DNA of 29,623 bases from Bdellovibrionota bacterium. GTDB taxonomy: Bacteria > Bdellovibrionota_C > UBA2361 > JBIKWN01. The position numbers and the translations under genes are program-made. Position 1 is the stretch's first letter; each line of letters starts with the position of its first letter. The notes under the pieces were generated by a model that searched no databases, was not told where the DNA came from, and saw nothing but the letters and a program-made list of their open reading frames with translations. Below, one piece after another: positions 652-16,437 of the stretch. The stretch is from contig JBIKWN010000030.1 in the NCBI GenBank assembly GCA_044356295.1, forward strand, positions 1-29,623. The letters are read 5' to 3'.

Positions 652-2091
652 TTAGAAATTACCCCACAAGTACTGATTAGTAATTTCATGATGAAATAAA
701 ACCTCGCTCGTTTTTACCATCGTTCCAAGTTCACGAGGGCAACGATCAGCAGAAGCAAGCTTTCTTTCGATGAATTTATCTTTGTTATCTTCCCCAAGAA
801 TAGAAGAAACAAAATCACTTTGTTTACAGTAACGAATCGCATCGTAAATATTTCCAGGAAGGAAACGAGTACGAGTTCTTCGTGTCTCTGAAGTAATTGT
901 TTCCGTCATAGGCCCCTCTAATCCTGTTCTTAACAGTGCATAGAACGTAATATAAGGATTCGCATCAGGAGCAACAGTTCGTACTTCAACACGAGATGAC
1001 TTTTCATTTCCAAGTGGGATTCGAATCATTGAAGTTCTATCAACTGGCGAAGACTTAATCTGATTCGGAGCTTCGAAATGTGGATCAAGTCTTCGATATG
1101 CATTCACTGATGGGTTCATGATAAGGCAGATGTCATTTGCGCTGTTAAGAATTCTGTCAACAAAATCCCATGCAAACTTAGAAAGATTCTCTTCCCCTTT
1201 AGCATCATAGAAAATGTTTACACCTTTTTGTGTAATCGACATATTCGTATGCATCCCACTTCCATTGATCCCAGCAATCGGTTTAGGAAGGAAACAAGCA
1301 GTCATACCCATATTTGCAGCGATTTGCCGTGCTGTAAGTTTGTACAGCTGAACCATATCTGCAGCTAATAATGCATCTGCATACGAGTAATTAAGCTCAA
1401 ATTGCGAAGGAGCAACTTCTGGGTGATCTTTCTCATTTTCAAAACCAAGAGCTCTTTGTGCTTCTGCAAGTTTATCAATGAAAAGTTTCAAAGGATCGTT
1501 TGGTAAGGAATGGTAATAGCCACCGCTGGAAACTAATTTAAATCCAGAGCGTGAATTAAAAGTCTGTTCAGCATTTATTCCATCGAATAAAAACCCTTCA
1601 ACTTCTACTGCAATATTTGCAATCATTCCTTTTTTAGCAAGCTGCTCTGTGTAATCTTTTAAGAGTCCACGCATGTCTGAGCTATAGAACTTTCCATCCT
1701 TATCTTTGATTAAACCAAAGACCAAGACTTTACCTGGACCAAATACATCACTTGGAAGCCACCTAAAACTTCCCCAATCAATATCGAGTCTCAAATCTGA
1801 TTCGCTTACTACTGAGAATCCACGAATAGAGGATCCATCAAAAGTTAAATTATCGTAAGATTTAAGAAGGAATTTTTTATCGTAATCCAACATATGGAAT
1901 CGACCTTCAAGGTCAGTAAAGCAAACAGTAACTGCTTTGAGCGATTTTTCATCATGAAGATATTTGAGGTAGTATTCGCGTAATTTTGTGTGATCTGGAG
2001 TTTTTAAGTATCGTTCTTTAGCTTCGAGATTCTTTTCTTCAAGAGTGTCGTAAGGTATTTCAAGAAAGGTTCTTAATGGTGCGTTTGTCAT
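652..2091 (-). CDS. glnA: Glutamine synthetase type I family
   Basis: Motifs FDGSSIRGF, EVEGFLF, HPEVAPSQFE, FLPKPIAGINGSGMH, NAYRRLDPHFEAP, RTSMIRIP and RVEVRTVAPDANPY. Confidence 0.93.
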   Translation of the reverse strand: MTNAPLRTFLEIPYDTLEEKNLEAKERYLKTPDHTKLREYYLKYLHDEKSLKAVTVCFTDLEGRFHMLDYDKKFLLKSYDNLTFDGSSIRGFSVVSESDLRLDIDWGSFRWLPSDVFGPGKVLVFGLIKDKDGKFYSSDMRGLLKDYTEQLAKKGMIANIAVEVEGFLFDGINAEQTFNSRSGFKLVSSGGYYHSLPNDPLKLFIDKLAEAQRALGFENEKDHPEVAPSQFELNYSYADALLAADMVQLYKLTARQIAANMGMTACFLPKPIAGINGSGMHTNMSITQKGVNIFYDAKGEENLSKFAWDFVDRILNSANDICLIMNPSVNAYRRLDPHFEAPNQIKSSPVDRTSMIRIPLGNEKSSRVEVRTVAPDANPYITFYALLRTGLEGPMTETITSETRRTRTRFLPGNIYDAIRYCKQSDFVSSILGEDNKDKFIERKLASADRCPRELGTMVKTSEVLFHHEITNQYLWGNF

Positions 2092-2238
2092 ATAATATAG
2101 GTTAAAAAGTTTTAGTTACCTTAAAGCATAAAATTTAAGGAATATTATAAATATTATAAAAAATACTATAAAAATGTTCAATTTAAATTTAATTCACAGA
2201 CTTTTTATTATAAAAACCAGTGTTTTAGTGATATTTTC

Positions 2239-3189
2239 ATGATTGAAGAGGTCCTCTGGCAGGGAGTGAAAATTTTCGAGCTCCAAAATTCAAGGCTACG
2301 GGCTCGCATATCACCTTTTCATGGAGCTAATCTATTTGATTTATTGGATAAAAAGCATAATTTTTCTTTACTAAGAGTCCCTCAAAGCTTGCAAGACTTG
2401 GTTGAACGCCCTCAGTTTTTTGGCATCCCAAACCTTTTTCCTCCAAATCGCATAAAAAACGGAAAATTTATCTGGAACTCAGAACGCTTTGAGTTTCCTA
2501 GAAATGATGAAGCAGGAAATCATATTCATGGTGTCTTGATGGATAAAGAGTGGCGGTTTTCTCATCTCGATGACAGTGATGATAAAACCTCACTAACACT
2601 TACTCTTGATGTAGTTGATCATCTTGAATGTTATCAAGCATTAAAACGAAAATTAAAATTTAGTATTACAATTACTTTAGAAGATGCAGTTTGTAAGCAC
2701 CGTTTTTTAGTTGAGAACCTTGATGTAAAAGATATTCCAATTGGTTATGGAGCTCATACGTGGTTTAACTTGGAAGGAGGAAGAGACGTATGGTCACTGA
2801 TAGTCCCCTTTGAAAAAGTTTGGGAGCTCGATGAAGAAATTCTACCAACTGGAGACTTCTTATCAGGAGAAAGAATTAGAGAACTCACAACCGGGATGCC
2901 TTTAAGAGATAAAACATTCGATACTATTCTTTATCGTGGACCGAACGATGCTTCAGTGCTTTTACAATCTAATACCGGATACAGAATAAATTACTGCGTG
3001 AGTGATAACTTCAAGCATTGGGTATTACATACACCTGATAACGATCTATCCTCGATTGCCATTGAGCCCTATAGCTGGATTACAAATGCTCCAAATCTGT
3101 CTCTTGGAGGTGATGTTACTGGGCTTATAGTTTTACGCTCTGGAAGCAGCATTGAATTTGTGCAGGAAATATCAGTGAGCACCATTTAG
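2239..3189 (+). CDS. Aldose 1-epimerase / galactose mutarotase-like protein
   Basis: GIPNLFPPNRI, NHIHG, GYGAHTWF, LPTG and IAIEP motifs, including the catalytic His and Glu. Confidence 0.85.
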   Translation: MIEEVLWQGVKIFELQNSRLRARISPFHGANLFDLLDKKHNFSLLRVPQSLQDLVERPQFFGIPNLFPPNRIKNGKFIWNSERFEFPRNDEAGNHIHGVLMDKEWRFSHLDDSDDKTSLTLTLDVVDHLECYQALKRKLKFSITITLEDAVCKHRFLVENLDVKDIPIGYGAHTWFNLEGGRDVWSLIVPFEKVWELDEEILPTGDFLSGERIRELTTGMPLRDKTFDTILYRGPNDASVLLQSNTGYRINYCVSDNFKHWVLHTPDNDLSSIAIEPYSWITNAPNLSLGGDVTGLIVLRSGSSIEFVQEISVSTI

Positions 3190-3204
3190 CAGGATTTTTC
3201 ATTC

Positions 3205-4023
3205 ATGCCACAACTCGACACTTGGTTTTCAAGTTCCGTGACACTTCCTTGGGAGATATCTGAGGAGTCTCCTTGGAATGAAAAAAAAGGAAAGCCGTTT
3301 AAAACATTTCCATTATCTTGGTTAGTTCCATATTCCAATCCAAGGATTGAAGATCTGCGTGATACGTCTACCCCAATTTGGATAACAGAGATCCATCCTT
3401 CAAATCCTTTAGGAACGTTGGTAGAAGATCAAGAAGGAACATTTATTATAGATTTACCAAGTTCGATTGATTTTTATTTTGAATCTCTAGAACCAAAAGA
3501 TAGAAAAAAATTTAGTGATAATTTAAAAAAGAACTCAACACTTTCTGTTGTTGAACAAAGTGTGGCTGATATAGATGCACTTTGGGGAAGTTATGTTGAT
3601 AGGCTGCAGGTTCTTGCCAAAAAAGCAGGCGGAGACATCTATTCAGAAGAAGAGATCGAATGGCGGCATCGTTTTCTTCACCAGGAATCGATTCGAGCAA
3701 TTAGTTTCTATGAAGAAAACACACTACTTGCAGTCAATATTGCACTTGTAAAGAATGACATTGTCTACGATTTAGCCTGTATTATTAACCAGGTCCCATC
3801 AGCCCTTAAAAGATCTTTAGGAACTACAGCAATTCTTAAAAATATCGAATGGTCTATTCGAAACGGGTATAAGACGTATGACCTACTTTCCCGAGATTAT
3901 GGATATAAGAGGCAGTTCGGAGCGAAAGAAGTTAAGTTAAAAGCAGTCATCATTGGAGATGATGATTTCTTTGATGAATACTCTATATCAAAAGATCTTC
4001 GTTGGAACCCGCAAAGCTCGTAA
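3205..4023 (+). CDS. GNAT-superfamily (Acetyltransf_6/FemAB-like) acyltransferase, paralog 1
   Basis: C-terminal KRSLGTTAILKNIEWSIRNGYKTYDLLSRDYGYKRQFGAK is a typical GNAT motif A/B region; IIDLPSSIDFYFESL is the Acetyltransf_6-type entry motif. Confidence 0.7.
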   Translation: MPQLDTWFSSSVTLPWEISEESPWNEKKGKPFKTFPLSWLVPYSNPRIEDLRDTSTPIWITEIHPSNPLGTLVEDQEGTFIIDLPSSIDFYFESLEPKDRKKFSDNLKKNSTLSVVEQSVADIDALWGSYVDRLQVLAKKAGGDIYSEEEIEWRHRFLHQESIRAISFYEENTLLAVNIALVKNDIVYDLACIINQVPSALKRSLGTTAILKNIEWSIRNGYKTYDLLSRDYGYKRQFGAKEVKLKAVIIGDDDFFDEYSISKDLRWNPQSS

Positions 4024-4075
4024 ACTCTATTAGATCTTTTGCATTTTGATATAAGAAGTCTATCATTTGAATGCA

Positions 4076-5335
4076 ATGGAAATGAAAAAAGAGATAGCAG
4101 CAATCAGGAAAAAAATTATTGCAGATCCTAGATGTAATACCGAAAAACCGGTCTATATCTTCGATCAGAATGAACTAATTAAAAGTGCAAAAGATTTTAC
4201 GAAAGCTTTTAAAGAAAATGGATTACAAGTACATCCATACTACGCACTTAAATCAAATCCTTATCCTAAAATTGTATCTACTCTCGCGAAGTTGAATATT
4301 GGTGTTGATGTATCGAGCGAACACGAGCTTTTAATTGCCAAAAAAGCAAAAGCTAAAAAAATCATCGTAACTGGGCCAGGTAAGACAGAAGTTTTTTTTC
4401 AAGCGATAAAGAAAACTTCAGCAGTACAGATTGTCTATTTAGAAAGTATTCAAGAGCTCTTAAGTTTTAAAAAAGTTTTTAAAAATTCCAAACCACCTTT
4501 TTTAGTTGGGGTTCGTATTGTTCCTACTGCATATGCATCGTGGGATAAATTTGGGATTTCCTTAAATGAACTCTCATCATTTCTTAAACTAGCGTTAAAG
4601 CATTGTGTTTTGATTGAAGCGATTCAATTTCATATTTCCTATGTAAAAGATAAAAAAACACATGCAAAAGCATTGCGCGAACTCGCAGCTGTTGGTGAAA
4701 AATTAAAAAAGCATGAAGGTAATGTTATTAAGGTTATTGATATAGGAGGAGGATTTTCTCCTCAAACTATAGAGGGTGATTATCCATGGAATCCAAAGGG
4801 ATTTAGTCTGTTTGATATAGATCCTATTAAAGCTAAGATTCTGAATCTTACCAAAGGGAAAAGGGCTAAGTTTTCAAAGCCTGATACCTTAAGTAGTATG
4901 GCAAAAGAAATTGCTTTAGTTTGGTTCAGCAAAATTCAAAAATATTTCCCGACAGCAAAACTTTGTGCCGAACCTGGAAGATATTTATCGCATCGGTGCA
5001 TGCATATACTTTTAAAAATTGTTGATAAAAAAAGCCCAACAACAGTAATTTTAAATGGTGGCTGGAATATGCTTGGGTGGGAAAAGTATCAATATATATC
5101 GTACGTTCCCGTTTTTAATATTGATAATTTCTCTTTAACGCGGGAACAACCCTGCATTCTTTATGGTAATTTGTGTTTACCTGATGATATCTGGGGCTAT
5201 TATCTTTTTGGCTCTAAGATTCAGATTGGTGACAGGATTTTGATTCCTTTCCAGGGTGCTTATACCTATACGTACCGTCAGGAATTTATTCGAGGTATTC
5301 CAAACGTAATTGATTGGCAAGGAGCATCACGCTAA
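4076..5335 (+). CDS. PLP-dependent group IV decarboxylase (diaminopimelate/ornithine/lysine decarboxylase family), substrate uncertain
   Basis: YYALKSNP (PLP Lys), TGPGKT, DKFG, IDIGGGF, EPGRYL, GNLCLPDD and GAYT. The start could be TTG 4067, ATG 4076 or ATG 4082. Confidence 0.85.
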   Translation: MEMKKEIAAIRKKIIADPRCNTEKPVYIFDQNELIKSAKDFTKAFKENGLQVHPYYALKSNPYPKIVSTLAKLNIGVDVSSEHELLIAKKAKAKKIIVTGPGKTEVFFQAIKKTSAVQIVYLESIQELLSFKKVFKNSKPPFLVGVRIVPTAYASWDKFGISLNELSSFLKLALKHCVLIEAIQFHISYVKDKKTHAKALRELAAVGEKLKKHEGNVIKVIDIGGGFSPQTIEGDYPWNPKGFSLFDIDPIKAKILNLTKGKRAKFSKPDTLSSMAKEIALVWFSKIQKYFPTAKLCAEPGRYLSHRCMHILLKIVDKKSPTTVILNGGWNMLGWEKYQYISYVPVFNIDNFSLTREQPCILYGNLCLPDDIWGYYLFGSKIQIGDRILIPFQGAYTYTYRQEFIRGIPNVIDWQGASR

Positions 5336-6159
5336 TGCCGTTAATTAGCGAATGGTTAGAGACTCCAATTGAGCTTTCTTGGGAGCAAGAATCTGTTGCT
5401 TACCATTATAACAGTCAAAAAGGGGAGCCGTATGCTTCGTTTCCTATGACCGGACTAACACCTATAAATATCGTTAACGAAGAAGACTTAAAAGATGCTC
5501 CTGAGCCTTTATGGATTACGTATCTTGAACCAGAGGATGGTATTGGAACTTTAGATTCAAAAGGGGACATGACCTACCGACTGGATCTACCTCAGAGCTT
5601 TGAGCAGTACATTGAGAGTCTTGATTATGATTCCCGAAAAGAGATGAGGTATGTCCTACGTAAAAATCAAGATTTAATAGTTCTTGAAAATCAAAAAGAA
5701 GATCTCTTAGCGGTTTGTGATGGGCATTTCGAAACTATTCGAAACCGATGCATAGAAGAAGGAGAGACTCCTTTTTCACTAGAGGGAATTGATATATTAA
5801 AGAAAATCTATGCAACCCCTCTATGTTATTCACTTTCTTTTATAGATTCTACTTCAAAAAAGCTTCTCGGAGTGAATGTAAGTTTCAGAAGAAAGGGCAT
5901 TGTCTATGACAGTGTCTGCATACGTCCTGAAAATGAGCTCTCGAAGAAGCGATCTCTTGGGACCTATGCGATTCTTAAAAATATTGAATATGCAATCAGA
6001 GACAAGCAGCGGATCTATGACATGCTTGTAGGTGAATGGGGATACAAGCCAAAGTTTGGAGCTAAAGCTGTACCGATGAGGCATATCATTCGTTGTTCAC
6101 GACAATTTGCAGATTCATACGGAATTCCACATCAAGATGTAGATCGGTTCAGCGAATAG
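5335..6159 (+). CDS. GNAT-superfamily acyltransferase, paralog 2
   Basis: KRSLGTYAILKNIEYAIRDKQRIYDMLVGEWGYKPKFGAK closely matches paralog 1. Start moved to ATG 5335 because of the TAATG overlap with the decarboxylase stop and because MPLISEW aligns with MPQLDTW. Confidence 0.7.
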   Translation: MPLISEWLETPIELSWEQESVAYHYNSQKGEPYASFPMTGLTPINIVNEEDLKDAPEPLWITYLEPEDGIGTLDSKGDMTYRLDLPQSFEQYIESLDYDSRKEMRYVLRKNQDLIVLENQKEDLLAVCDGHFETIRNRCIEEGETPFSLEGIDILKKIYATPLCYSLSFIDSTSKKLLGVNVSFRRKGIVYDSVCIRPENELSKKRSLGTYAILKNIEYAIRDKQRIYDMLVGEWGYKPKFGAKAVPMRHIIRCSRQFADSYGIPHQDVDRFSE

Positions 6160-6289
6160 CGAAACTCTTCATTGAGTTCTTGCACCATTACACAGGAAGA
6201 CTAAAATGATTTTTTTAAGTGTTTGCAGAATACGTTAATTTGTTATGCTCTCACTTGAGCTTTAATTTATTTACCCTCTATTTTATTCC

Positions 6290-8674
6290 ATGAGCCGCGA
6301 CGATACCCTTACTGCTAAAACTCTTCTGTTTGTAAACTCTGGAGGAAAGAAGAAAAAATTTACTCTTGAAATCGCAAGACGAACAGGCGCACAAATCATC
6401 CTCCTTGGCCCTGAACTTGATGTTCCTAAAAAATTAGTAGATTTCTTTATTCAAGTTGATAACTACAATCACACTGAATGTATAGAGAAACTACAAACAT
6501 TTCTCGAAGAGCACCCTAGTATTTATATCGATGGTGCAATTACTTTTTGGGAAGACGATGTGCCACTTCTTTCTAGACTTTGTGAGCATTTTGGATTTAT
6601 TGGAAATAGCTATCAAACTGCAATAAATACTCGGAATAAATACGAGATGAGGAAGCGCCTTCGAGAAACTGGACTTGGCAGTCCTGAGTTCCATCTTTTG
6701 CAGTCAAAGGATGACCTAGAAGATGCAATGCATTTTATTGGGTTTCCCGCTGTGATGAAGCCTGTATGGGGAGCTGATAGCCAGTTCGTCGTTATGGTGA
6801 AAGATGAAGAGGAAGCAAAGGCGACCTATGAGTATTTTCAGAAAAACTGTAATGAACAGTACGATCCAATATTTAAATACAATGAAAATCAGTATCTGTA
6901 TGAAGAGTATTTAGATGGAACAGAGATTAGCCTTGAGTGCTATTCCCAGTTTGGAATTCCTCATGTCCTAGGAATAAATGAGAAGCAACCGATTCAGCCT
7001 CCTTATTTTATTGAATACGGCGATATTGCCCCTGCACGTCTTACGGAAGATATAGAACAAGAAGTCATTAAGCTTGCAGAGAGTTCACTGATTGCCCTGG
7101 GTGTTCAAAATTCACTTTCACATATTGAATTAAAGATTACATCAGACGGACCTAAACTTATCGAAGTAGCCTCTAGAATGGGTGGTGATGATATTTACCT
7201 AAACGTAAAAACCGTTTGGGGCTTTGACATGCTAAAGATTGGATTCCAAGTTGCTTGTGGAATCAAAGTTGAAAATAAGAAAAGAGAAGCACATGACATT
7301 GTAATTTGTCGTTATTTTATTCCAGAGTACTCAGGAATAATTACAAATATCTCTGGCACAAAAGAATGCAAAGAGATGAAAAACGTCCTCGATCTTGTGA
7401 TATCAAAAGACGTAGGTGATGCCGTTTTCGTTCCACCAGAAGGTTACGAAAATATGGGATGGATTGTCGCAAAGGGGCGGTCTTACCAGGAAGCTGAAAC
7501 TGTGATGGACCGAGCGATAAAGAAGCTTGAAATCAACGTAACAAGATTTCGAAAAGGATCGAATCTTAAGCCAAGAATTGGTACTGAATCATTAAGCACT
7601 GCACCACTCATAAGACGTCAATTAATGCGAGCTGCAAAAATTCAGAGAATTAGAAGTTTTGATGCATTAAAAAAACTTCATATCGGAATACTTGCAAACA
7701 CGCTTTCAGTGAGCGAAGGGGATAAGCTTTCAAAAAATAGTGATTGCGAACTTATAAAATCACTACTCGATGCTCGCGGATATAAAGTTTCTTTGTTTGA
7801 TATGAGTGAATCACCAATTCCACTCAGAAAATTACAAAGAATGAATCTCGATTTTGTTCTAAACCTGTGTGAGTCAATCTATAACTCAATGAGTATGGAG
7901 CCACACGCTGCAGCACTCATGGATCTTTTGCAGATCCCTTATACTGGGTCATCTTCAGCTACTATTTCACAGTGCATGGATAAGATTACTGTTAAAAAAC
8001 TTTTTCAGTACCATGAAATTCCAACTCCAGCATGGGACTATGTCTATAGTATGGATGAGGTTATTCGTGACGATCTGCATTTTCCACTTATTGTAAAACC
8101 AGCAGATACGGATAATTCATACGGTATCACAAATCAGTCCGTCGTGAAGAACCGTGCTGAGCTTAAAAAACAACTCCATGCGGTTATTGTCGGACTTGGA
8201 CGTCCTGCATTAATTGAAGAGTTTATCGATGGCGATGAATTTGACGTTTGTATTCTTGGAAGTGGTGAAGATGTTCGTGTGCTGCCACCTATTCGTTCAA
8301 TATTTGATAGAATGCCAAAAGGGTACTGGCATATATATGCTCAATCTTCAAAAACTGAGAATGGGGATCCTGCATATGATGCGATTAGAGTTGAGAAGCA
8401 CCCAAAGATTTCAAAAAAGTTAGCATCGCTTATTAATAATATTGCACTCGATGTGTATTCTCTTTTTGATTGTCTTGATTACGGTAAAGTTGAGATTAGA
8501 GTAGACAAGCAAGGAAATCCTTACGTTTTAGAAGTCAATCCAAATCCTCCGATTGGAAAAGAAGACTTTATGGCAATTGCTGCTAAAACTGATGGATATG
8601 ATTATGGTGATTTTATTGAAGAGATATTATACCGAGCCGTCGATCGATACCGTCAAAAGCCACTCGTTCGGTAA
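6290..8674 (+). CDS. Tandem double ATP-grasp ligase: N-terminal L-amino-acid-ligase-like module and C-terminal D-Ala-D-Ala-ligase-like module
   Basis: Module 1: RNKYEMR, FPAVMKP, EEYLDGTEISLE, HIELK, IEVASRMGG. Module 2: DFVLNLCE, IPYTGS, MDKITVK, FPLIVKP, LIEEFIDG, LEVNPNP. Confidence 0.85.
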   Translation: MSRDDTLTAKTLLFVNSGGKKKKFTLEIARRTGAQIILLGPELDVPKKLVDFFIQVDNYNHTECIEKLQTFLEEHPSIYIDGAITFWEDDVPLLSRLCEHFGFIGNSYQTAINTRNKYEMRKRLRETGLGSPEFHLLQSKDDLEDAMHFIGFPAVMKPVWGADSQFVVMVKDEEEAKATYEYFQKNCNEQYDPIFKYNENQYLYEEYLDGTEISLECYSQFGIPHVLGINEKQPIQPPYFIEYGDIAPARLTEDIEQEVIKLAESSLIALGVQNSLSHIELKITSDGPKLIEVASRMGGDDIYLNVKTVWGFDMLKIGFQVACGIKVENKKREAHDIVICRYFIPEYSGIITNISGTKECKEMKNVLDLVISKDVGDAVFVPPEGYENMGWIVAKGRSYQEAETVMDRAIKKLEINVTRFRKGSNLKPRIGTESLSTAPLIRRQLMRAAKIQRIRSFDALKKLHIGILANTLSVSEGDKLSKNSDCELIKSLLDARGYKVSLFDMSESPIPLRKLQRMNLDFVLNLCESIYNSMSMEPHAAALMDLLQIPYTGSSSATISQCMDKITVKKLFQYHEIPTPAWDYVYSMDEVIRDDLHFPLIVKPADTDNSYGITNQSVVKNRAELKKQLHAVIVGLGRPALIEEFIDGDEFDVCILGSGEDVRVLPPIRSIFDRMPKGYWHIYAQSSKTENGDPAYDAIRVEKHPKISKKLASLINNIALDVYSLFDCLDYGKVEIRVDKQGNPYVLEVNPNPPIGKEDFMAIAAKTDGYDYGDFIEEILYRAVDRYRQKPLVR

Positions 8675-8683
8675 AAGATATCA

Positions 8684-9238
8684 GTGAAAAATCCTTGGAC
8701 AAAATTATCTTCGAAAGTTGTTTATCAAAACCCTTGGATTACTGTTCGCGAAGATCAAGTTTTAAAGCCAAACGGTGAACCTGGGATTTACGGTGTTGTT
8801 GAACCTCGGATTGCGACAGGGGTTGTGGCAATGACAGAAAAACAAGAGATTTATCTTGTCGGTCAATATCGTTATCCAATGGATCTTTACTCTTGGGAGA
8901 TTCCAGAGGGCGGGACTGAAGTAGGTGAAGATCCTCTTGTCGCTATCAAAAGAGAGTTAAAAGAAGAAGCCGGCATTACTGCTAAAAACTGGAAACAGCT
9001 GGGTCATGAGCTGCACTTGAGTAACTGTTTTACAAATGAGCGAGCATATCTTTATTTAGCAACAGATTTAGAAGAGGGTATGAGTTCTCCAGAAGATACT
9101 GAAGTACTAACGGTGAAAAAAATGCCAATTAGCCAAGTATTTTCAATGATCCAGAAAGGCGAGATTTTTGATGCCATGACTGTCATGGGGGTGATGATGG
9201 TGATGTCCACTCTCGGTAAAAAGGGTAATTTTTACTGA
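8684..9238 (+). CDS. NUDIX hydrolase (ADP-ribose pyrophosphatase-like)
   Basis: Nudix box GGTEVGEDPLVAIKRELKEEAG, with upstream QYRYP and WEIP. GTG start. Confidence 0.9.
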   Translation: MKNPWTKLSSKVVYQNPWITVREDQVLKPNGEPGIYGVVEPRIATGVVAMTEKQEIYLVGQYRYPMDLYSWEIPEGGTEVGEDPLVAIKRELKEEAGITAKNWKQLGHELHLSNCFTNERAYLYLATDLEEGMSSPEDTEVLTVKKMPISQVFSMIQKGEIFDAMTVMGVMMVMSTLGKKGNFY

Positions 9239-9273
9239 TTTACCGTGATTTTATCGCTGCAGACTAAATATGC

Positions 9274-9406
9274 CAATGTCATTAAGTTAAGGCATTCCTA
9301 CCCCGTGACCATGACCGTAGGCGTGAGCGTGACCTTAAATTGTTTGGGTCACGCTCACGCACACGCTCAAGGTCACGGCACGTAAGTTCTTAACTTAATG
9401 ACATTG
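9274..9406. mobile_element. Non-autonomous fold-back element (MITE) with IS4-like terminal inverted repeats
   Basis: Perfect TIRs CAATGTCATTAAGTTAAG (9274-9291) and CTTAACTTAATGACATTG (9389-9406); inner perfect 14-bp stem 9321-9334/9347-9360; degenerate flanking direct repeat GACTAAATATGC / GACCAATATGC. Confidence 0.75.
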
Positions 9407-9454
9407 GACCAATATGCATTACATACGAAATATTACTAAAGATCTTTTTCCTAG

Positions 9455-11470
9455 GTGCCGACTAAATCTGTTATGGGAATTAGGGAACAATTAAAAAACT
9501 TTTTGAGTAAAACTGCTGTACCAACTGACAACCTAAGTGATCTTGAGCTTTCTCGCTTAGTTGCAATTGAATTAGGTCTCCCTTATTACGAAACAGCACC
9601 AGAAGATATGCCTCATTTGAGTGGCGTACTCGAGCATCCAGTTGTTCGTGCAGTTCCAATTTCTAAATGGAAAGAGCTTACTGCTATACCAAAAGAGATC
9701 ACAGCTGATTCTGCAACAGTCCTCGTGGCTAATCCATTTCAACTAGAGCTTCAAAGAGAGTTAACATTTCTTTTAGGAGGAAAAACTGTAGAGATAGTAA
9801 TGTCATCTGAGCAAAGTATCTCATCGATTCTTAATTGTTTTGGAAAAGTTCAAAATACGAATGAGCTTAAATTACAACTCGATGATAGTGAGCTTATATT
9901 TACTCAAAAGCCTGTAGTTGAAGCCACACATGAATCAACGATTAAGCCTGAAGATGTTTCTGCTCCTCTTGTCATTAGACTTGTCAATAAAATATTTTCA
10001 GATGCACTTGATTCTGGAACAAGTGATATTCACTTGACTCCTACTCAAAAAAATCTCGAAGTAAAAATTCGTATCGATGGAATTCTAAAAGATCTACTGA
10101 CAGTACCTATAAACTTAAAACTTACTGTAACTGCTAGAATTAAACTTCTTTGTGGGATGGATATATCTGAAAGAAGAAAACCACAGGATGGACGACTTCG
10201 TTTAAAAACTGGCTCACAACCCGTAGATTTAAGAGTTTCTTGTGTTCCAAGTGTATACGGCGAGACGATTGTCATACGGCTTTTATCAACAAAAATTTCA
10301 CAGGTTGAACTTGATAGCCTTGGCATGGATAAGAACCTCGTTGGTAAAGTCGAGCGAGCTTTGAAAAGTTCATCAAAAGTAGTGCTTGTTGCAGGACCGA
10401 CAGGTTCAGGAAAAACAAGTACTCTTTACGCAGCACTCTCGCATATTGCAGATGGAACCAAAAATATTATTACCATTGAAGATCCAGTTGAATATCGCAT
10501 CGAAGGTATTACTCAGATGCAGGTAAATAATAAAACTGATATGACTTTTGCAAATGGTCTACGGTCAGCGCTTCGACAAGATCCAGATGTCATTATGGTC
10601 GGTGAAATTAGAGATTTGGAAACTGCGCAAATATCAATGCAAGCTGCTCAGACAGGGCACCTTGTATTATCAACGATTCATACAAATACAGCCGAAGGAT
10701 CTATTACACGATTACTTGACCTTGGAGTTCCGGCATATCTTATTGCATCTTCAGTCACTGCAATTATAGCTCAAAGACTTGTTCGACGATTACAACCAGA
10801 TGGGACACTTTCAGGAAGAGTTGGTATTTTTAGCATGATAGAAATCACCCCTGAAGTTGTTGATCTAATCCGTTGTGGAGCAGGAGAGCATGAAATTATA
10901 AACAGAGCTTCTTTACAAGGATTTGTCCCACTTTGGCAACATGGACAATCTTTAATTGACCAAGGGGTAACCACCTACGAGGAAGTTGAAAGAGTTCTTG
11001 GTCCAAAGCCAAGTCTAGATCATCAAACTAACAATCAAACACGTATCAACGTCAATATGTCGCAAGGAAATGTTACACATAATCCTATCGCTAAAAGAAA
11101 GATTCTATTAGTGGAAGATGATGATACTTCTCGCACAGTACTCTCAATGTTATTTGAAGATGAGTTTTATGAAGTGATTCAAGCCTCAAATGGGCATGAA
11201 GGGCTCGAGAAAGTTTATGCTCACCATCCTGAAATCATTGTCAGTGACCTGATGATGCCAAGAATGTCGGGACTTGAAATGCTTCAAAAATTAAAAGGTG
11301 ACACTCGTTTATCGTCTATACCTGTTTTGATGCTTACAGCTGCAGCTCATGAAGAAAACGAAATCGATTTAATCAAACACGGTGCTGATGATTTTGTTAG
11401 TAAATCAGCTGATTCGAAGGTATTGCTGGCTCGGGTTGAGCGTATATTAAACAGAGCTTCTCATAGCTAA
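9455..11470 (+). CDS. GspE/PilB-family secretion/pilus ATPase with C-terminal response-regulator receiver domain
   Basis: SDIHL, RIDG, ERRKPQDG, Walker A GPTGSGKTSTLY, TIEDPVE, LRQDPDVIMVGEIRD, TGHLVLSTIHTN. REC domain: ILLVEDD, SDLMMPRMSG, LTA, GADDFVSK. Alternative start ATG 9473. Confidence 0.92.
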   Translation: MPTKSVMGIREQLKNFLSKTAVPTDNLSDLELSRLVAIELGLPYYETAPEDMPHLSGVLEHPVVRAVPISKWKELTAIPKEITADSATVLVANPFQLELQRELTFLLGGKTVEIVMSSEQSISSILNCFGKVQNTNELKLQLDDSELIFTQKPVVEATHESTIKPEDVSAPLVIRLVNKIFSDALDSGTSDIHLTPTQKNLEVKIRIDGILKDLLTVPINLKLTVTARIKLLCGMDISERRKPQDGRLRLKTGSQPVDLRVSCVPSVYGETIVIRLLSTKISQVELDSLGMDKNLVGKVERALKSSSKVVLVAGPTGSGKTSTLYAALSHIADGTKNIITIEDPVEYRIEGITQMQVNNKTDMTFANGLRSALRQDPDVIMVGEIRDLETAQISMQAAQTGHLVLSTIHTNTAEGSITRLLDLGVPAYLIASSVTAIIAQRLVRRLQPDGTLSGRVGIFSMIEITPEVVDLIRCGAGEHEIINRASLQGFVPLWQHGQSLIDQGVTTYEEVERVLGPKPSLDHQTNNQTRINVNMSQGNVTHNPIAKRKILLVEDDDTSRTVLSMLFEDEFYEVIQASNGHEGLEKVYAHHPEIIVSDLMMPRMSGLEMLQKLKGDTRLSSIPVLMLTAAAHEENEIDLIKHGADDFVSKSADSKVLLARVERILNRASHS

Positions 11471-11553
11471 TAATCTAGGGGACATGCCTCATGATTCCTT
11501 GTTCGGTACTTTGTGCTGACAGATGATTATTTAATCGCTATCATGAATAGGCT

Positions 11554-12285
11554 ATGGCTGATGAAACCCCAGCAATGACTCCTCAACAACGACTTCTTAC
11601 TGAGGGGGCTCAAAATCCGTTGGCGTTATATAAAGAGTTATCAGTCGGACAAGAAAACTCATTTTCTTATTTTCTTCTATTTGAGTTTTTAACAACTTTT
11701 ATCTCTGGCTTGCCTGGATTGTTAGGTTTTGGTTTCAGATCTGTTTTATATCCTCTTTTATTTAAATGTTGTGGAAAGCGCCCAGCTATCGGTAGAGGTG
11801 TTGTGCTGAGGAGAACTAGAAATATTTCATTAGGAAATAAAGTACTTATCGATGACTACGCTGCTATTGACGTAAGAGGACACGGATCCATTACTATTGG
11901 CAACAACGTCTCAATTGGAAGGCTCACCACAATAACTGCAAAAAATGGATCTATTACTTTAGAGTCTGGAGTTAATATTGGCTCCTATGCACGAATTGCA
12001 ACACAATCAAAAGTACATATTGGAGAAAGCACTTTAATAGCAGCATATGCATACATTGGTGCAGGGAATCATCAGCCTGGTGACCACGATACTCCACTGA
12101 TTGAACGCACTATGCAGATAAAGGGTGGCGTCTCTATCGGAAAAAATTGTTGGATTGGAGCAGGTGCGATGATTCTTGACGGCGTAACTATTGGGGACGG
12201 AGCAATTATTGGCGCACAAAGCCTTGTTAACAAAGATGTTCCTGCCGGAGTAACAGTTATTGGTACACCAGCAAAACCTTTATGA
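11554..12285 (+). CDS. Hexapeptide-repeat (left-handed beta-helix) acyltransferase, WcaF/MAT-like
   Basis: Repeated [LIV]G hexapeptides; GNH; IGKNCWIGAGAMILDGVTIGDGAIIGAQSLVNKDVP; GTPAK. Confidence 0.88.
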   Translation: MADETPAMTPQQRLLTEGAQNPLALYKELSVGQENSFSYFLLFEFLTTFISGLPGLLGFGFRSVLYPLLFKCCGKRPAIGRGVVLRRTRNISLGNKVLIDDYAAIDVRGHGSITIGNNVSIGRLTTITAKNGSITLESGVNIGSYARIATQSKVHIGESTLIAAYAYIGAGNHQPGDHDTPLIERTMQIKGGVSIGKNCWIGAGAMILDGVTIGDGAIIGAQSLVNKDVPAGVTVIGTPAKPL

Positions 12286-13073
12286 CAGTATATTCGGAAA
12301 AACGTTACCCTGTTTGGTTTATTGTTGTTGTTTCTATAACGACACTTCTTATAACGCTATACGCTGTCCGTCCAATTAATAGTCTAGTTCTTCCAAAAGA
12401 TGGCACGTATATAGGTAGTCTCTCAATGAGTGGATTGGACGAAGCGCCGTTTTTAGCTGAAATCGATCGTTCAAAAAATATTTTACAAATGACTTTTTTT
12501 CATCGAGATATTTCACCTCAAAAAAATGATCTTGTTGTAACACCATCATTATTTGGCACAAGTTTTAAACCACCTCGGATTCTTATTTTTGGTAAAGAGT
12601 ATAACTTTACTGGGAATTCTGTCTCTCAGGATGATGCAAAAGGATATCTTTCAAGTGATCGTGGACAATCAGTTGGACACTGGTATCTGAGGAAAGTGGC
12701 CTATTTACCTACTGTTAGTAAAGATACTGCATCCTCATATGTTACAACATGGAAGCAGTCTCAAGAGTTATTAAAGCTTAAAACAAAAGAGAACCATGAA
12801 TATGCACTATTAAAAACTGATCAACAGAAGTTAAAGGAAATCTTAGCGCAACAAAGTGCAATACAGGTTGAAGGCGGGCGAAAACTAGCTCGAGCCCGTC
12901 GCGAGCTTGATGAGAAAAGTCTTGCAAAGAAAAAAACAACTGCTGAGCTTTCGGTTTTGCGAGGGCGTATTATATTGGCGCAAAAACTATCTCCTCAGGG
13001 TAAATTCTTGGCTCTTTCAAGGATTTCACTTAAAGAAGAAGCTTCTTGGTTTTTTCAGGGAGCTAAAAAATGA
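12282..13073 (+). CDS. Hypothetical membrane-anchored protein with C-terminal coiled coil
   Basis: N-terminal hydrophobic helix (VWFIVVVSITTLLITLYAV), charged heptad-like C-terminus, and ATGA overlaps at both ends. Confidence 0.7.
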   Translation: MTVYSEKRYPVWFIVVVSITTLLITLYAVRPINSLVLPKDGTYIGSLSMSGLDEAPFLAEIDRSKNILQMTFFHRDISPQKNDLVVTPSLFGTSFKPPRILIFGKEYNFTGNSVSQDDAKGYLSSDRGQSVGHWYLRKVAYLPTVSKDTASSYVTTWKQSQELLKLKTKENHEYALLKTDQQKLKEILAQQSAIQVEGGRKLARARRELDEKSLAKKKTTAELSVLRGRIILAQKLSPQGKFLALSRISLKEEASWFFQGAKK

Positions 13074-13744
13074 TAAGAGCATCTTTATCACTTTTAATGA
13101 TATTTTTACTTTGTACGACTTCTGAAGTGGTTGCCCAAGAAAAAAAATCCTTCCTTTTTTTTGAAATACCTGAAGAAAAGCAGCCTTTAGGTCAGTGTCG
13201 AATTTATTGGTGGAACGATGATCTAACAGATGGATTTGAAACTGAAGTTGAAATAGCTGAAGGGGCTCAAAGTGTCTATGGAATAGCGCTACGTCCTGAA
13301 GTGCTAAAAGAAGATGTTCTTTCATACGGATTAAAATGCGAGTTTAACGGACAGACAAAACCAATCTTCATAACGGGGGGACGTACCATTACTGAACGTG
13401 AAGTAAATCGTCTCAGTTCTGAGAGAAAGGTGTTTGTTTCTGATATCCAAGATGCTCGAAAGAGCAAAGAGTCGCTTGCACTTGAGACACGAATTGCTCG
13501 CTCTCAGCTTTTATCATTAATTCCTACAGACGATATTATTAATCTGAGACAAGAAATAGAGAGATTAACTCAAGATACTGCAATGCTTGTCGCGGAAAAA
13601 AAGGTACTTCAAGCAGCCCTTGAAAATTTAGATTTTAAGAAAACTGAATCCGACGTATTCTTTGCTTCTGAAAAACTTTTACAGCAATACCTTGAAGAAC
13701 AACGACCAAAACCAAAGCAGCCTGTCAAAAAGTCAAAAGGATAG
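13070..13744 (+). CDS. Hypothetical exported protein with C-terminal coiled coil
   Basis: Signal-peptide-like N-terminus (MIRASLSLLMIFLLCTTSEVVA), helical charged C-terminus, ATGA overlap with the upstream gene. Confidence 0.7.
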   Translation: MIRASLSLLMIFLLCTTSEVVAQEKKSFLFFEIPEEKQPLGQCRIYWWNDDLTDGFETEVEIAEGAQSVYGIALRPEVLKEDVLSYGLKCEFNGQTKPIFITGGRTITEREVNRLSSERKVFVSDIQDARKSKESLALETRIARSQLLSLIPTDDIINLRQEIERLTQDTAMLVAEKKVLQAALENLDFKKTESDVFFASEKLLQQYLEEQRPKPKQPVKKSKG

Positions 13745-13970
13745 TATCCAGCAGTTTGCCGTCATGGTAAGGCAAACGAACATGTCTGCTGTAGTACTAT
13801 TTTTAATTGAAGCGCATAAACCGCTACGTTCGATTTTCCGGCAATGTTTCATTGCATGCTCTCCTTTCACCAAAAGCTCCAATGTTGCAAGCACTATTCT
13901 TACTCAACTGCTTTTACTAACTACAAATCCTAAGGCTCTAGACTATTTCGTAGCGGAGCTTGAACAATGA
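13662..13970 (+). CDS. Small hypothetical protein (FLIEAHKPL motif)
   Basis: Fills the gap between operon genes and its stop overlaps the next start (ATGA). Start uncertain (TTG 13662 or ATG 13764). Confidence 0.6.
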   Translation: MLLKNFYSNTLKNNDQNQSSLSKSQKDSIQQFAVMVRQTNMSAVVLFLIEAHKPLRSIFRQCFIACSPFTKSSNVASTILTQLLLLTTNPKALDYFVAELEQ

Positions 13971-14695
13971 ATGTAGAGCATGCCAATAGTTATACAGCTC
14001 TCTTTCTTTTTATAAGTTTTTGCGTTGTTTTGTATTTTCGAAAGTTTAATCAAAACATTACGGTAAGACACATTGCAGCGATAGAAATGATCTCTTACGG
14101 AGTTGCACGTGCTGCAGAAGCAGGAAAATCAATAATATTTACTACGGGCATTTCTACTTTAGGTCCAGTATTTTTTGCATGTTTAACCCTTCTTAAGGGA
14201 ATTCTTCAAAAGGCAAAACAACTTCATGTACCAGTTATACTCCCTCAAAATTCTCCTGAATGTGTTGCATACTTAGAGTCGTTTCTTGAGCAGAATGAAT
14301 TTCATGATAGTTCACCAGCACCCTCTGTACAATTTCTTTCAGAAGATCAGTTTGCATTTGCGTCTGGTTATATGGGCTTAGTTCACAGACATCAAACCGA
14401 GACTGCCTTTTTATTCGGACAGTTTGCAGGTGAATCTTTGATATTGAGTGAGGCAGGGCGTCAAGTAAATGCTTTTCAAATCGCAGGTAGTGTAAGCCCA
14501 GAGCAAGTGCCATTTTTTATCTGTACCTGTGATTATACGTTAATAGGAGAAGAGCTTTTTGCGGCAGGAGCATATCTGAGTGGTGATTCAAGTGACCTAG
14601 GGAATTTGCGTTCTCAAGATATTTTGAAACTTCTTTTGATGCTTATTATTGTTGTAGGAATTATCTGGACATATTTTTCTAAGTATTTTCTATGA
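13967..14695 (+). CDS. Conserved membrane protein, DUF6754-like
   Basis: N- and C-terminal TM helices around a soluble domain with VRHIAAIE...GVARAAEAGK, QFAFASG, ESLILSEAG, QIAG, QVPFFICTCDYTLIGEELFAAGAYLS. The family name is from recall. Confidence 0.7.
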   Translation: MNVEHANSYTALFLFISFCVVLYFRKFNQNITVRHIAAIEMISYGVARAAEAGKSIIFTTGISTLGPVFFACLTLLKGILQKAKQLHVPVILPQNSPECVAYLESFLEQNEFHDSSPAPSVQFLSEDQFAFASGYMGLVHRHQTETAFLFGQFAGESLILSEAGRQVNAFQIAGSVSPEQVPFFICTCDYTLIGEELFAAGAYLSGDSSDLGNLRSQDILKLLLMLIIVVGIIWTYFSKYFL

Positions 14696-15582
14696 GACTG
14701 ACATCAGCCGTTACCTTTATATCAGGTCTGTATTTTGTTTTGTATTTCTTGATTCCTGAAGTCAAGCTGGAGCAGTGGGGTATTATCGCTCTTCATCCTA
14801 CAATAACTCAGGGGTATATCATTGTAGGAGTTATGGCATTTGGCGTTGGGTTAATTAACCTTAGCTTCGTTCATTTAAAAACAATCGCACTGTTGAAAAA
14901 AGATGCCATCTTTAGCGTAATCCTTTTATCTTCACTGATTGGAACTATCCTTTTCGGACTTGTTGATTGGTATCAAGAAAGAGCAGTTGCTCGGTTTTTT
15001 TTAAAAGCTCAAGTGTATCAAAGTTTTTTTGAAAAACATTCAGAAGAGATAAAGAAAGATTATTATCCTTTTATAAAAGAATTAGCAGTTGAGGCTTCGA
15101 ATATTGGATTTTCTGAAAGATACAGCAATGAAATCGTGAATCTTGAAAAAAGTATTACAGGAAGTGAAATTAGTCAGAAGTTAAATGAAATTTTACTAAA
15201 AAAAGATCAGTTCCAGGAAGCGGATAATACAGAAAGATTTGCTGCAAAAGTATCAAGATTCTTTAATGAAGGAATATTTATTCCTCTTGGCTCATCAATG
15301 TTTGCTCTTCTTTCATTTTATATAGCTTCGGCCGCATTTCGTGCGTTTCGGTTGCGTTCATTTGAAGCGACGCTATTAATGATAACAGCTGTTCTTGTTG
15401 TGTTTGGACAAGTTCCAATGATTGCTTCACATTGGGATGGGTTTCCGCTTATTCGGAACTGGCTTTTAACCGTTCCCAATACTGCCGCTTTTAGAGGAAT
15501 TTCATTTGGGGCGAGTATTGCTGGCTTAGTATTGGCAATCCGTGTTTGGCTTTCTATTGATAAAAATCAGGTAGGAGCATAA
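14692..15582 (+). CDS. Uncharacterised multi-pass membrane protein
   Basis: About 6 TM segments; conserved-looking PLGSSMFALLSFYIASAAFRAFRLRSFEA and WLLTVPNTAAFRGI. Confidence 0.8.
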   Translation: MRLTSAVTFISGLYFVLYFLIPEVKLEQWGIIALHPTITQGYIIVGVMAFGVGLINLSFVHLKTIALLKKDAIFSVILLSSLIGTILFGLVDWYQERAVARFFLKAQVYQSFFEKHSEEIKKDYYPFIKELAVEASNIGFSERYSNEIVNLEKSITGSEISQKLNEILLKKDQFQEADNTERFAAKVSRFFNEGIFIPLGSSMFALLSFYIASAAFRAFRLRSFEATLLMITAVLVVFGQVPMIASHWDGFPLIRNWLLTVPNTAAFRGISFGASIAGLVLAIRVWLSIDKNQVGA

Positions 15583-16437
15583 GTGACTCGATCATCCCGA
15601 ATAATTTATATTTTACTTTTTCTAACGCTGCTGATTCCTCTCATGAGTTCGTTGTCTATTACGCCAGCGTTTAATTCTTCAGCGAAAAAAACGTATGATT
15701 ACATAGAATCGTTACCACAAAACCAAAATAATTTTGCTTTACTATTCTTAGATTATGGTCCAGGTACTCAGGCAGAGAATCAACCTCAAGCGTCAGTTAT
15801 TTTTGAGCATCTCCTAAGAAAAAAAATTCCAACAATTCTATTAACGACATACTCATTGGGGGAAAAGTTCACTCAAGAAACGGTTAAAGAAGTATTACGT
15901 CGAATGAAATTAGAAGCTCCTGATACAGAGTATGTGTACGGTGTAGATTATGTAGTTCTTGGTTATAGACCGGGGGCAAATTTATTTCTGCAGGGTATAT
16001 CACAATCAAATAAATTAGCTGAGTTTTTAGGTAAGGATATTAAAGGAATTCCACTTGTTCACTATGACGCCTTTAAAAATCTTACAACACTTTCACAAGT
16101 TTCAACTATCGGTCAGTTTACTGGACTTGTTGGTTTTTTAAGCTCATATATCCAGTTTTTAACAGTGCAAGGTCAAACAGCACCACTCATTCACGGGTGC
16201 ACCAGTATTACTATTCCAGAAACCTATATTTATGCTGATACTGGTCAACTTCGAGGTACATTAGAAGGTGTTTCGGGTGCTGCGTATTACTCTCATATGC
16301 TACAAACGAATTTCAAAAATCGACAAACTGATGATTCATTGGTCATTAATACAGCTCTCGGACTTGGACAGATATTAATACTGATTCTCATCGTTGCAGG
16401 GAATCTCATTGAGTTTTTTGGAAGGCGAATAGTGTGA
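15583..16437 (+). CDS. Uncharacterised membrane protein with large extracytoplasmic domain
   Basis: N- and C-terminal TM helices; DYGPGTQAENQP, YGVDYVVLGY, TGQLRGTLEGVSGAAYY. GTG start immediately after the upstream stop. Confidence 0.8.
   Translation: MTRSSRIIYILLFLTLLIPLMSSLSITPAFNSSAKKTYDYIESLPQNQNNFALLFLDYGPGTQAENQPQASVIFEHLLRKKIPTILLTTYSLGEKFTQETVKEVLRRMKLEAPDTEYVYGVDYVVLGYRPGANLFLQGISQSNKLAEFLGKDIKGIPLVHYDAFKNLTTLSQVSTIGQFTGLVGFLSSYIQFLTVQGQTAPLIHGCTSITIPETYIYADTGQLRGTLEGVSGAAYYSHMLQTNFKNRQTDDSLVINTALGLGQILILILIVAGNLIEFFGRRIV

Follow-up and report, generated by a model that had tools for sequence, protein, structure and literature searches.

GNAT-fold transferases, a pyridoxal phosphate decarboxylase and a double ATP-grasp ligase in a Bdellovibrionota bacterium: a candidate NRPS-independent route to an amide-linked amine

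Introduction

What could be made by a set of genes in which a pyridoxal 5'-phosphate (PLP) decarboxylase stands between two acyltransferase-like proteins of the GNAT superfamily and is followed by a ligase with two ATP-grasp modules and a NUDIX hydrolase? The question is raised by a locus of a Bdellovibrionota bacterium (assembly GCA_044356295.1, contig JBIKWN010000030.1, positions 1 to 29,623), and the whole stretch of 29,623 nucleotides (nt), with a G+C content of 37%, is referred to here as the window. An earlier note on this DNA had proposed a pathway independent of nonribosomal peptide synthetases (NRPS), leading to a multiply amidated amine. The gene arrangement on which that proposal was built was borne out: the decarboxylase lies between two paralogous proteins, GNAT1 and GNAT2 (35% identity over 264 residues, E = 4e-53), the second of which is joined to it by a TAATG overlap, and the NUDIX gene follows the ligase gene after a spacer of 9 nt (8675-8683), with all genes on the plus strand. 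As read here from gene families, models and neighbourhoods, GNAT1, the decarboxylase, GNAT2 and the double ligase may form one biosynthetic unit that makes a small, free, amide-linked amine without an NRPS, with a probability put at about 45%.

The decarboxylase and its conserved neighbourhood

The decarboxylase was matched by the Pfam families Orn_Arg_deC_N (2.3e-28) and Orn_DAP_Arg_deC (3.2e-4), with both the TIM-barrel PLP domain and the C-terminal beta-sheet domain present, and its AlphaFold2 (AF2) model, with a predicted local distance difference test (pLDDT) score of 90.7, displayed the group IV fold. The catalytic residues of group IV enzymes comprise the PLP lysine, a glycine-rich phosphate loop and an active-site cysteine. 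Among 23 family sequences, K62, H189, G227-229, E302, C370 and Y399 were invariant or nearly so, and K62 (in KSN), G227-G229, C370 and G397-A398-Y399, invariant in all 23, were found to align to the motifs of diaminopimelate (DAP) decarboxylase and of the rhizoferrin enzyme FslC. The possibility raised beforehand in the earlier note, that the enzyme might be the housekeeping DAP decarboxylase LysA, was rejected, with a score of 115.8 bits against a cut-off of 297.9 for the equivalog model TIGR01048. Scores below the cut-off were likewise obtained with the models for FslC (56.6 bits against 500), NspC (34.2 against 409), DokD (31.3 against 700), SpeA (20.3 against 624) and the exosortase-associated TIGR03099 (81.1 against 478), and the best single-sequence match in the PDB reached only 2.4e-12. 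The family to which the enzyme belongs is large, with 1348 matches among 8000 scored candidates and 468 relatives confirmed in a species-level genome collection, and its members are named in the sources only as 'alanine racemase', 'diaminopimelate decarboxylase' or 'hypothetical'. The protein is a group IV (alanine-racemase-fold) PLP enzyme of an unnamed family, and not LysA.

When the family profile was scored against the PDB, DAP decarboxylase came first (6.5e-41), followed by 6knh (8.4e-40), FslC (7kh2, 5e-39) and the butirosin enzyme BtrK (2.5e-38), and enzymes acting on amino acids that have already been ligated are thus almost as close to the family as those with free substrates. The entry 6knh is titled 'probable diaminopimelate decarboxylase' and is taken by us to be the staphyloferrin B decarboxylase SbnH; its LCTP.D stretch matches LCLPDD of the window enzyme. 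Additional decarboxylase genes were also seen in two of the loci: in one (L013:8371-11197) the family decarboxylase occurs twice in tandem, and in the other (L002:8658-11110) it is immediately followed by a group IV decarboxylase of more canonical type (Orn_Arg_deC_N, 4.4e-50).

The neighbourhood of this family was studied in 79 loci taken around relatives of the decarboxylase and annotated by tblastn, Pfam and custom hidden Markov models. In 74 of these an ATP-grasp gene adjoins the decarboxylase gene. Of the remaining five, four have contigs that break off at the decarboxylase, and the fifth (L023) shows only a weak ATP-grasp-like neighbour. A GNAT of the Acetyltransf_6 type is present in 58 loci and the two-module ligase of the window in 17, and the association of decarboxylase, ATP-grasp protein and GNAT spans at least ten phyla. 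The expectation of conserved neighbours was therefore upheld for these three kinds of partner (74/79, 58/79 and 17/79 for ATP-grasp, GNAT and double ligase) and failed for the exact set of genes and for the NUDIX hydrolase, each of which was found again in 1/79.

Three layouts were distinguished. Layout A (GNAT, decarboxylase, GNAT, double ATP-grasp, NUDIX) is that of the window and of a single further locus (L001, from a Bdellovibrionota metagenome-assembled genome, MAG), in which synteny runs from the glutamine-synthetase-like gene to the downstream genes. Layout B comprises 20 loci from Peregrinibacteria, Gracilibacteria, other Patescibacteria and one Nitrospirota MAG, in which the double ATP-grasp gene (16 of the 20) is followed by none to two ATP-grasp genes of the L-amino acid ligase (LAL) type, by one of the ATP-grasp_3 type and by the decarboxylase gene; 7/20 have an Acetyltransf_6 GNAT as well. 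In three of these loci an open reading frame (ORF) of 472 amino acids (aa) with no Pfam family lies between the double ATP-grasp gene and the next ATP-grasp gene (L005:7225-8643, and the same place in L011 and L012), where other layout-B loci have an LAL-type ligase. Layout C, with 53 loci from Thermodesulfobacteriota, Zixibacteria, Planctomycetota and other members of the Planctomycetota-Verrucomicrobiota-Chlamydiota group, Ignavibacteriota, Omnitrophota and others, presents the order SpeD-like gene (AdoMet_dc, 45 loci), Acetyltransf_6 GNAT (50 loci), one LAL-type ATP-grasp gene and decarboxylase, the four-gene operon being conserved in 45 loci; upstream there is often a gene for a TetR regulator (26 loci) or for a sigma-54 activator (17 loci). 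The SpeD-like proteins of layout C carry a conserved E-T-S in the place of the E-S that forms the self-cleavage site of S-adenosylmethionine decarboxylase.

In a quick maximum-likelihood tree of the decarboxylases, layouts A and B were separated from layout C with Shimodaira-Hasegawa-like approximate likelihood ratio test (SH-aLRT) support of 100 for both sides, and the window and L001 fell, on a long branch of 1.53, within the clade of layouts A and B (SH-aLRT 98), the loci of which carry either the double ligase or its partner of the AGy type. The stand-alone ATP-grasp ligases of layout B flank the decarboxylase where the window has its GNATs, which suggests that the two kinds of enzyme substitute for each other. 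The layout of the window is rare; the additional stand-alone ATP-grasp ligases of layout B are absent from it, and a duplicated GNAT pair of independent recruitment surrounds the decarboxylase in their stead. A constant number of four amide-forming units across the layouts was considered and dropped, with the units varying from 2 to 5; such variation is typical of diversifying small-molecule pathways, and since the count is not constant, the products probably differ between layouts.

No curated NCBIfam model was found for the cassette proteins, those of the layout C operon included, and the cassette was not described in the full-text literature searched, which leaves out most subscription journals, so that a prior mention is possible. 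SpeD homologues in polyamine clusters have been reported, and the matched passages of that paper name neither ATP-grasp nor acetyltransferase partners (PMC10407285).

The two-module ATP-grasp ligase

The second conserved partner had been described as a ligase with two ATP-grasp modules, and Pfam and PDB matches agreed. The N-terminal module was assigned to ATP-grasp_4 (1.3e-27, residues 150-299) and LAL_C2 (2.1e-13, residues 341-417), as expected of an L-amino acid ligase, and the C-terminal module to Dala_Dala_lig_C (residues 590-780). In the PDB the closest proteins were 3vot (1.7e-34, residues 69-406), BacD (5e-21) and the D-alanine-D-alanine ligase (Ddl) 3r23 (2.2e-19, residues 475-782). 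A housekeeping Ddl was rejected, with 160.8 bits against 243 for PRK01372 and 123 against 245.65 for TIGR01205; the BacD model was also below its cut-off. The protein is a predicted amide former, with an N-terminal module of the L-amino acid ligase type and a C-terminal module that resembles Ddl.

The double ATP-grasp family counted 413 homologues, which were 44-86% identical among the 120 matches listed, from bacteria of the candidate phyla radiation (CPR), DPANN archaea and Elusimicrobia; clusters from Peregrinibacteriota, Falkowiibacteriota and Elusimicrobiota were retrieved by the Atlas search. Compared with 14 layout-B loci from CPR bacteria and Nitrospirota, the window ligase showed identities of 54-65% in its N-terminal half and 47-58% in its C-terminal half, whereas the decarboxylase, at 37-43%, was far less conserved. 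Apart from this, identities of 44-60% were seen to proteins labelled Micrarchaeota, Woesearchaeota, Diapherotrites and Nanoarchaeota and many CPR phyla, a conservation across domains that is unusually high for an unnamed enzyme. Identity to the syntenic L001 was also uneven along the locus, being 96% for the glutamine-synthetase-like protein, 92-94% for the double ATP-grasp protein, 64% for the decarboxylase, 66% for GNAT1, 77% for GNAT2, 75% for the NUDIX hydrolase and 73% for the epimerase-like protein upstream of GNAT1.

The GNAT pair

GNAT1 was assigned to Acetyltransf_6 (PF13480, 27.9 bits against a gathering threshold of 22), and GNAT2 alone gave no Pfam family at E <= 1e-3. Among NCBIfam models the sole match of GNAT1 was a weak one to arginyltransferase (27.6 bits). 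The AF2 model of GNAT1, built from a 44-sequence alignment, was of high quality (pLDDT 96.3, predicted template modelling score 0.91), and when it was searched with Foldseek the first nine ranks were held by Sbb17, Sba18 and FemX (E = 2e-9 to 3e-8, template modelling scores, TM, of 0.49-0.53). Sbb17 and Sba18, which are peptide synthases in complex with streptothrisamine, were matched at E = 2e-9 to 7e-9 and TM 0.53, and FemX at 1e-8 to 3e-8, followed by MprF aminoacyl-phosphatidylglycerol synthases, L/F-transferase and ATE1. With the A3 profile, the only PDB sequence match near significance was again Sbb17 (E = 0.12).

Two residues were found to be common to all three GNAT groups, namely D226, which is invariant, and K235 of a G-[YW]-K motif, which is kept in 38 of the 44 rows as aligned; the G-Y-K and D motifs are present in GNAT2 too. 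In the sections consulted of a 2026 review, a C-terminal lysine is described as key in FemX (K305) and in DhpH-C (K329), the Fem and related tRNA-dependent GNAT-fold transferases are described as having two full GNAT domains, and Orf11, PacB, VlmA and DhpH/K are given as small-molecule examples of this class (PMC12945691). The N-terminal beta-rich part of the GNAT1 model is shorter than that of FemX, and no tRNA gene was found in the window. GNAT1 is a Fem-like GNAT-fold transferase and probably acts as an aminoacyl (or acyl) transferase on an amine, and the Fem-like character suggested in the earlier note has gained strength from the predicted fold.

The origin of the pair is a separate matter. 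Scores of about 200 bits link the GNATs of layout B to those of layout C, whereas the window GNATs reach either group at 12-27 bits and are nearer to generic Acetyltransf_6 proteins (41-84 bits). Orthology with the GNATs of the other two layouts was rejected on the value of 12-27 bits, and the window pair was therefore recruited separately and then duplicated, and not inherited as part of the cassette. The family is also rare, with 34 matches, nine of them below 1e-30, among 1.84 billion representatives. That one superfamily has been joined on more than one occasion to the core of decarboxylase and ATP-grasp protein speaks for a functional fit.

Proposed pathway and closest known systems

The steps that we infer would be the following. 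Each of the two ATP-grasp modules would join a carboxylate to an amine with the use of ATP, by way of an acyl-phosphate. The decarboxylase would strip an amino acid of its alpha-carboxyl, most probably after that amino acid has entered an amide bond, as is the case for FslC and BtrK, and the decarboxylation would create or expose an amine. Each Fem-like GNAT would then transfer one residue to an amine, for which an aminoacyl-tRNA is the likeliest donor. The product would probably be small and cationic, a short peptide-amine or a pseudo-polyamine, and the multiply amidated amine of the earlier note keeps its conditional standing.

The enzyme classes and the logic of such a pathway (NRPS-independent ligases, tRNA-dependent GNATs and dedicated group IV decarboxylases) are already known, and four systems come close. 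The rhizoferrin pathway (FslA/FslC) resembles the window in having a pathway-dedicated group IV PLP decarboxylase, the N-citrylornithine decarboxylase FslC (7kh2), which acts on an amino acid once an amide bond has linked it to a partner. The rhizoferrin and staphyloferrin B pathways employ IucA/IucC-type NRPS-independent siderophore (NIS) synthetases and citrate, whereas the window has ATP-grasp modules together with GNATs of Fem-like type, and a Pfam search of its operon found neither an NIS synthetase nor a transporter. In butirosin biosynthesis, BtrJ (ATP-grasp) and BtrK (group IV decarboxylase, 2j66/7ru7) alternate on a glutamyl unit. The likeness lies in the pairing of an ATP-grasp ligase with a group IV decarboxylase and in the place of BtrK among the top profile matches; the butirosin chemistry, however, takes place on the carrier BtrI, and neither a carrier gene (among ORFs of at least 60 aa) nor aminoglycoside genes were found in the window operon.

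The L-amino acid ligases, BacD and Ddl form amide bonds through acyl-phosphates. The ligase BL00235 (3vot) and BacD resemble the N-terminal module of the window ligase and Ddl the C-terminal one, the difference being that the two window modules are fused in one 794-aa protein with a family of its own. The class that gave GNAT1 its best structural matches (Sbb17/Sba18 and FemX) includes Orf11, Sba18 and Sbb17 (BD-12, streptothricin analogues), FemX, PacB, VlmA and DhpH, from which GNAT1 differs in its Pfam family (Acetyltransf_6 and not FemAB). According to the sections of the review at hand, those transferases add an amino acid from an aminoacyl-tRNA to the amine of a small molecule or precursor (PMC12945691). 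What appears to be new is the conserved cassette, its three layouts and the GNAT-for-ligase arrangement of the window.

Points against the proposal and alternative explanations

Several findings weigh against the pathway proposed here. The exact layout of the window recurs only in L001, and its GNAT family numbered 13 proteins in a word-indexed profile search. For three of the 13, the longest contig has the same length as for matches to the decarboxylase or the double ligase (346311, 5478 and 10132), which suggests, short of proof, that they lie on the same contigs. The distant relation to the GNATs of layouts B and C means that the conservation of the latter is not directly transferable to the window. 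The Foldseek search of the decarboxylase model gave TM values of 0.70-0.73 for ornithine decarboxylase, arginine decarboxylase, DAP decarboxylase and FslC alike and so does not tell substrates apart, and a substrate assignment from the fold was dropped for this reason. The gap of 130 nt before the ligase gene may separate two transcripts, and the NUDIX and epimerase-like genes, which are linked to the others by adjacency, may be co-transcribed passengers. Finally, the likeness of GNAT1 to the Fem fold is moderate (TM about 0.5, 13% identity), the protein is, with 272 aa, shorter than the Fem-type enzymes (286-335 aa), and both GNATs are acidic (isoelectric point about 5), unlike an expected tRNA binder.

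These last three features keep the use of acyl-CoA by the GNATs under consideration, in which case the pathway would be the same and its product an amine or peptide that carries an N-acyl group such as acetyl or succinyl. The membership of GNAT1 in Acetyltransf_6, a GNAT family, is consistent with acyl-CoA use, as are the Atlas neighbours, all of which were labelled GNAT acetyltransferase, and the acetyl-CoA enzymes VipF and MAB_4324, which were reached lower in the fold list of GNAT1, from E about 4e-5. The best 30 or so matches in that list are nevertheless aminoacyl-tRNA-dependent enzymes, with E values three to four orders of magnitude better than those of the acetyl-CoA enzymes, and arginyltransferase is the only NCBIfam match; acyl-CoA-dependent N-acyltransferases are thus regarded as somewhat unlikely, with enough in their favour to deserve attention.

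The target of the enzymes might otherwise be an envelope precursor, either a lipid or the stem peptide of peptidoglycan, with the GNATs and ligases adding side-chain residues and the decarboxylase acting on a DAP-like residue. ATP-grasp Asl enzymes and Fem transferases are alternative builders of peptidoglycan cross-bridges, and FemX and MprF among the best fold matches of GNAT1, the Ddl-like C-terminal ligase module and DAP decarboxylase as the best PDB match of the decarboxylase profile would all agree with such a role. It is rendered quite unlikely by the Pfam annotation of the operon, in which no Mur, Pbp or lipid-carrier gene was found, by the scores of the Ddl and LysA models, both below cut-off, and by the flanks of layout C, which are a SpeD-like gene and TetR or sigma-54 regulators and not envelope genes. 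The double ATP-grasp family is, moreover, present in DPANN archaea, which to our knowledge are without peptidoglycan.

A carrier-tethered chemistry of the BtrI or LysW type, with a tethered amino acid as substrate and a product released later, would account for BtrK among the top profile matches and for the LysX matches of the ligase, which were weak (63.6 bits against 275.6). It is considered improbable, given that among ORFs of at least 60 aa the window operon contains neither a gene for a carrier protein nor a small conserved ORF, and that none occurred in the gene families common to at least 6 of the 79 loci, in which the small families proved to be antisense shadows of core genes. That the genes are mere neighbours without a shared function is disfavoured and highly improbable: the recurrence of the five-gene set in one other locus only, the NUDIX and epimerase-like genes not conserved with the decarboxylase and the 130-nt gap that splits the set are set against an association of decarboxylase, ATP-grasp protein and GNAT that crosses phyla, the translational coupling by TAATG and the clustering of the window decarboxylase with those that accompany the double ligase.

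Gene order and transcription unit

The genes and the intergenic gap are listed in Table 1, together with two example loci of layout C. The decarboxylase has TTG as its start codon, with alternative ATGs at 4076 and 4082. Its stop codon TAA (5333-5335) shares one base with the ATG of GNAT2 (5335-5337), and GNAT2 is, as judged from these letters, translationally coupled to it; from this ATG the protein begins MPLISEW..., in parallel to MPQLDTW... of GNAT1. The spacings on the one strand (the TAATG overlap, 43, 130 and 9 nt) were counted in favour of a shared unit.

Table 1. Features of the decarboxylase locus in the window and examples of layout C (example loci are numbered in their own coordinates).
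Feature	Position	Strand	Spacing to next gene or arrangement	Annotation
Glutamine-synthetase-like gene	652-2091	minus	divergent from operon	
Aldose-1-epimerase-like gene	2239-3189	plus	15 nt to GNAT1	Pfam Aldose_epim
GNAT1, 272 aa	3205-4023	plus	43 nt to decarboxylase	Pfam Acetyltransf_6
Group IV PLP decarboxylase, 422 aa	4067-5335	plus	TAATG overlap with GNAT2	
GNAT2, 274 aa	5335-6159 (ORF from 5314)	plus	130 nt to ligase	
Intergenic gap, 130 nt	6160-6289	plus		without recognisable element
Two-module ATP-grasp ligase (AG2), 794 aa	6290-8674	plus	9 nt to NUDIX	
NUDIX hydrolase, 184 aa	8684-9238	plus		Pfam NUDIX
Layout C example (among L024-L079)	L071:7178-11125			
Layout C example (among L024-L079)	L049:7114-11209			

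A candidate extended -10 element, TGTTATGCT, had been pointed out within the 130-nt gap, and both the gap and the letters (6241-6249) are present. A scan of the gap for sigma-70 consensus promoters and for terminators gave no site of either kind and did not pick up TGTTATGCT, which is also not conserved in L001, the sole syntenic relative; the gap as a whole is poorly conserved in that locus. The scan carries no weight either way, since over 2000-9600 it returned fewer promoter-like sites (15) than did dinucleotide shuffles (mean 22.9, standard deviation 4.6), and host promoters may not fit the sigma-70 consensus that was used. A riboswitch, T-box or other RNA in the gap was rejected, with no Rfam match and a folding z-score of -0.67, no better than shuffles; over 2000-9600, Rfam at E <= 1 gave only a chance match to a snoRNA, inside the decarboxylase gene. 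A defence system was rejected as well, with no PADLOC family for five of the six proteins and a weak PDC-S07 match for the NUDIX protein (30.1 bits).

Upstream of GNAT1 lies the aldose-1-epimerase-like gene, which had been passed over in the earlier note. Its product was matched by Pfam Aldose_epim (2.3e-35) and by the PDB aldose 1-epimerases 4bzf and 3mwx (1.4e-45). By tblastn, the gene was found in L001, where it is syntenic and where its ORF overlaps the start of GNAT1 (73% identity), and in none of the other 78 loci. From that overlap, the spacing of 15 nt to GNAT1 and the common strand, the transcription unit may begin at the epimerase-like gene, the membership of which is uncertain.

The NUDIX hydrolase was assigned by Pfam (1.2e-16), and a Nudix box, GGTEVGEDPLVAIKRELKEEAG, is found at residue 76 in agreement with the general motif GX5EX7REUXEEXGU; the NudE equivalog model gave 70.7 bits, below its cut-off of 169. 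Since a homologue was found near the decarboxylase only in L001, it is the 9-nt spacing that speaks for membership, and the gene is probably co-transcribed, with a functional link not supported by conservation.

Other features of the window

Beyond the locus, the gene at 9455-11470 encodes an ATPase of type II/IV secretion that bears a response-regulator receiver as a C-terminal fusion. Further genes in the same orientation (9455-19661) code for a hexapeptide acetyltransferase, several proteins without a family, a DUF6754 protein (13967-14695) and a GlmL/MutL-like protein (17095-18687). In L001, tblastn detected the acetyltransferase and, in part (8827-9201), the ATPase-receiver fusion, and the downstream ORFs of that locus are similar in length. 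A small ORF at 22815-23108 carries a BrnA/CopG antitoxin-like domain (3.2e-8) and is overlapped on the opposite strand by an 83-aa ORF without a family.

Implications

A wider reading is put forward tentatively and is considered rather doubtful: the cassette might represent a family of pathways that is widespread but has gone unrecognised, works without ribosome or NRPS and is built around one dedicated amide-substrate decarboxylase, in which ATP-grasp ligases and tRNA-dependent transferases would be interchangeable and new amide-linked cationic metabolites would be made, and the window would be a module swap in which a duplicated transferase replaces two stand-alone ligases. The hosts would be CPR bacteria, possibly DPANN archaea, Bdellovibrionota and many anaerobic phyla. 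If the proposal is true, hundreds of genomes, mostly from uncultured lineages and including host-dependent CPR bacteria and predatory Bdellovibrionota, would encode an uncharacterised small metabolite through a simple and portable set of enzymes, and a common mis-annotation of its proteins as 'alanine racemase', 'diaminopimelate decarboxylase' and 'D-alanine--D-alanine ligase' would be corrected. The SpeD-like operon of layout C may point to a branch of polyamine-like metabolism that has yet to be described. The layout of the window would, in turn, be a natural experiment in which tRNA-dependent transferases stand in place of the ATP-dependent ligases of its relatives, and it may be useful for the understanding and engineering of amide-bond formation.

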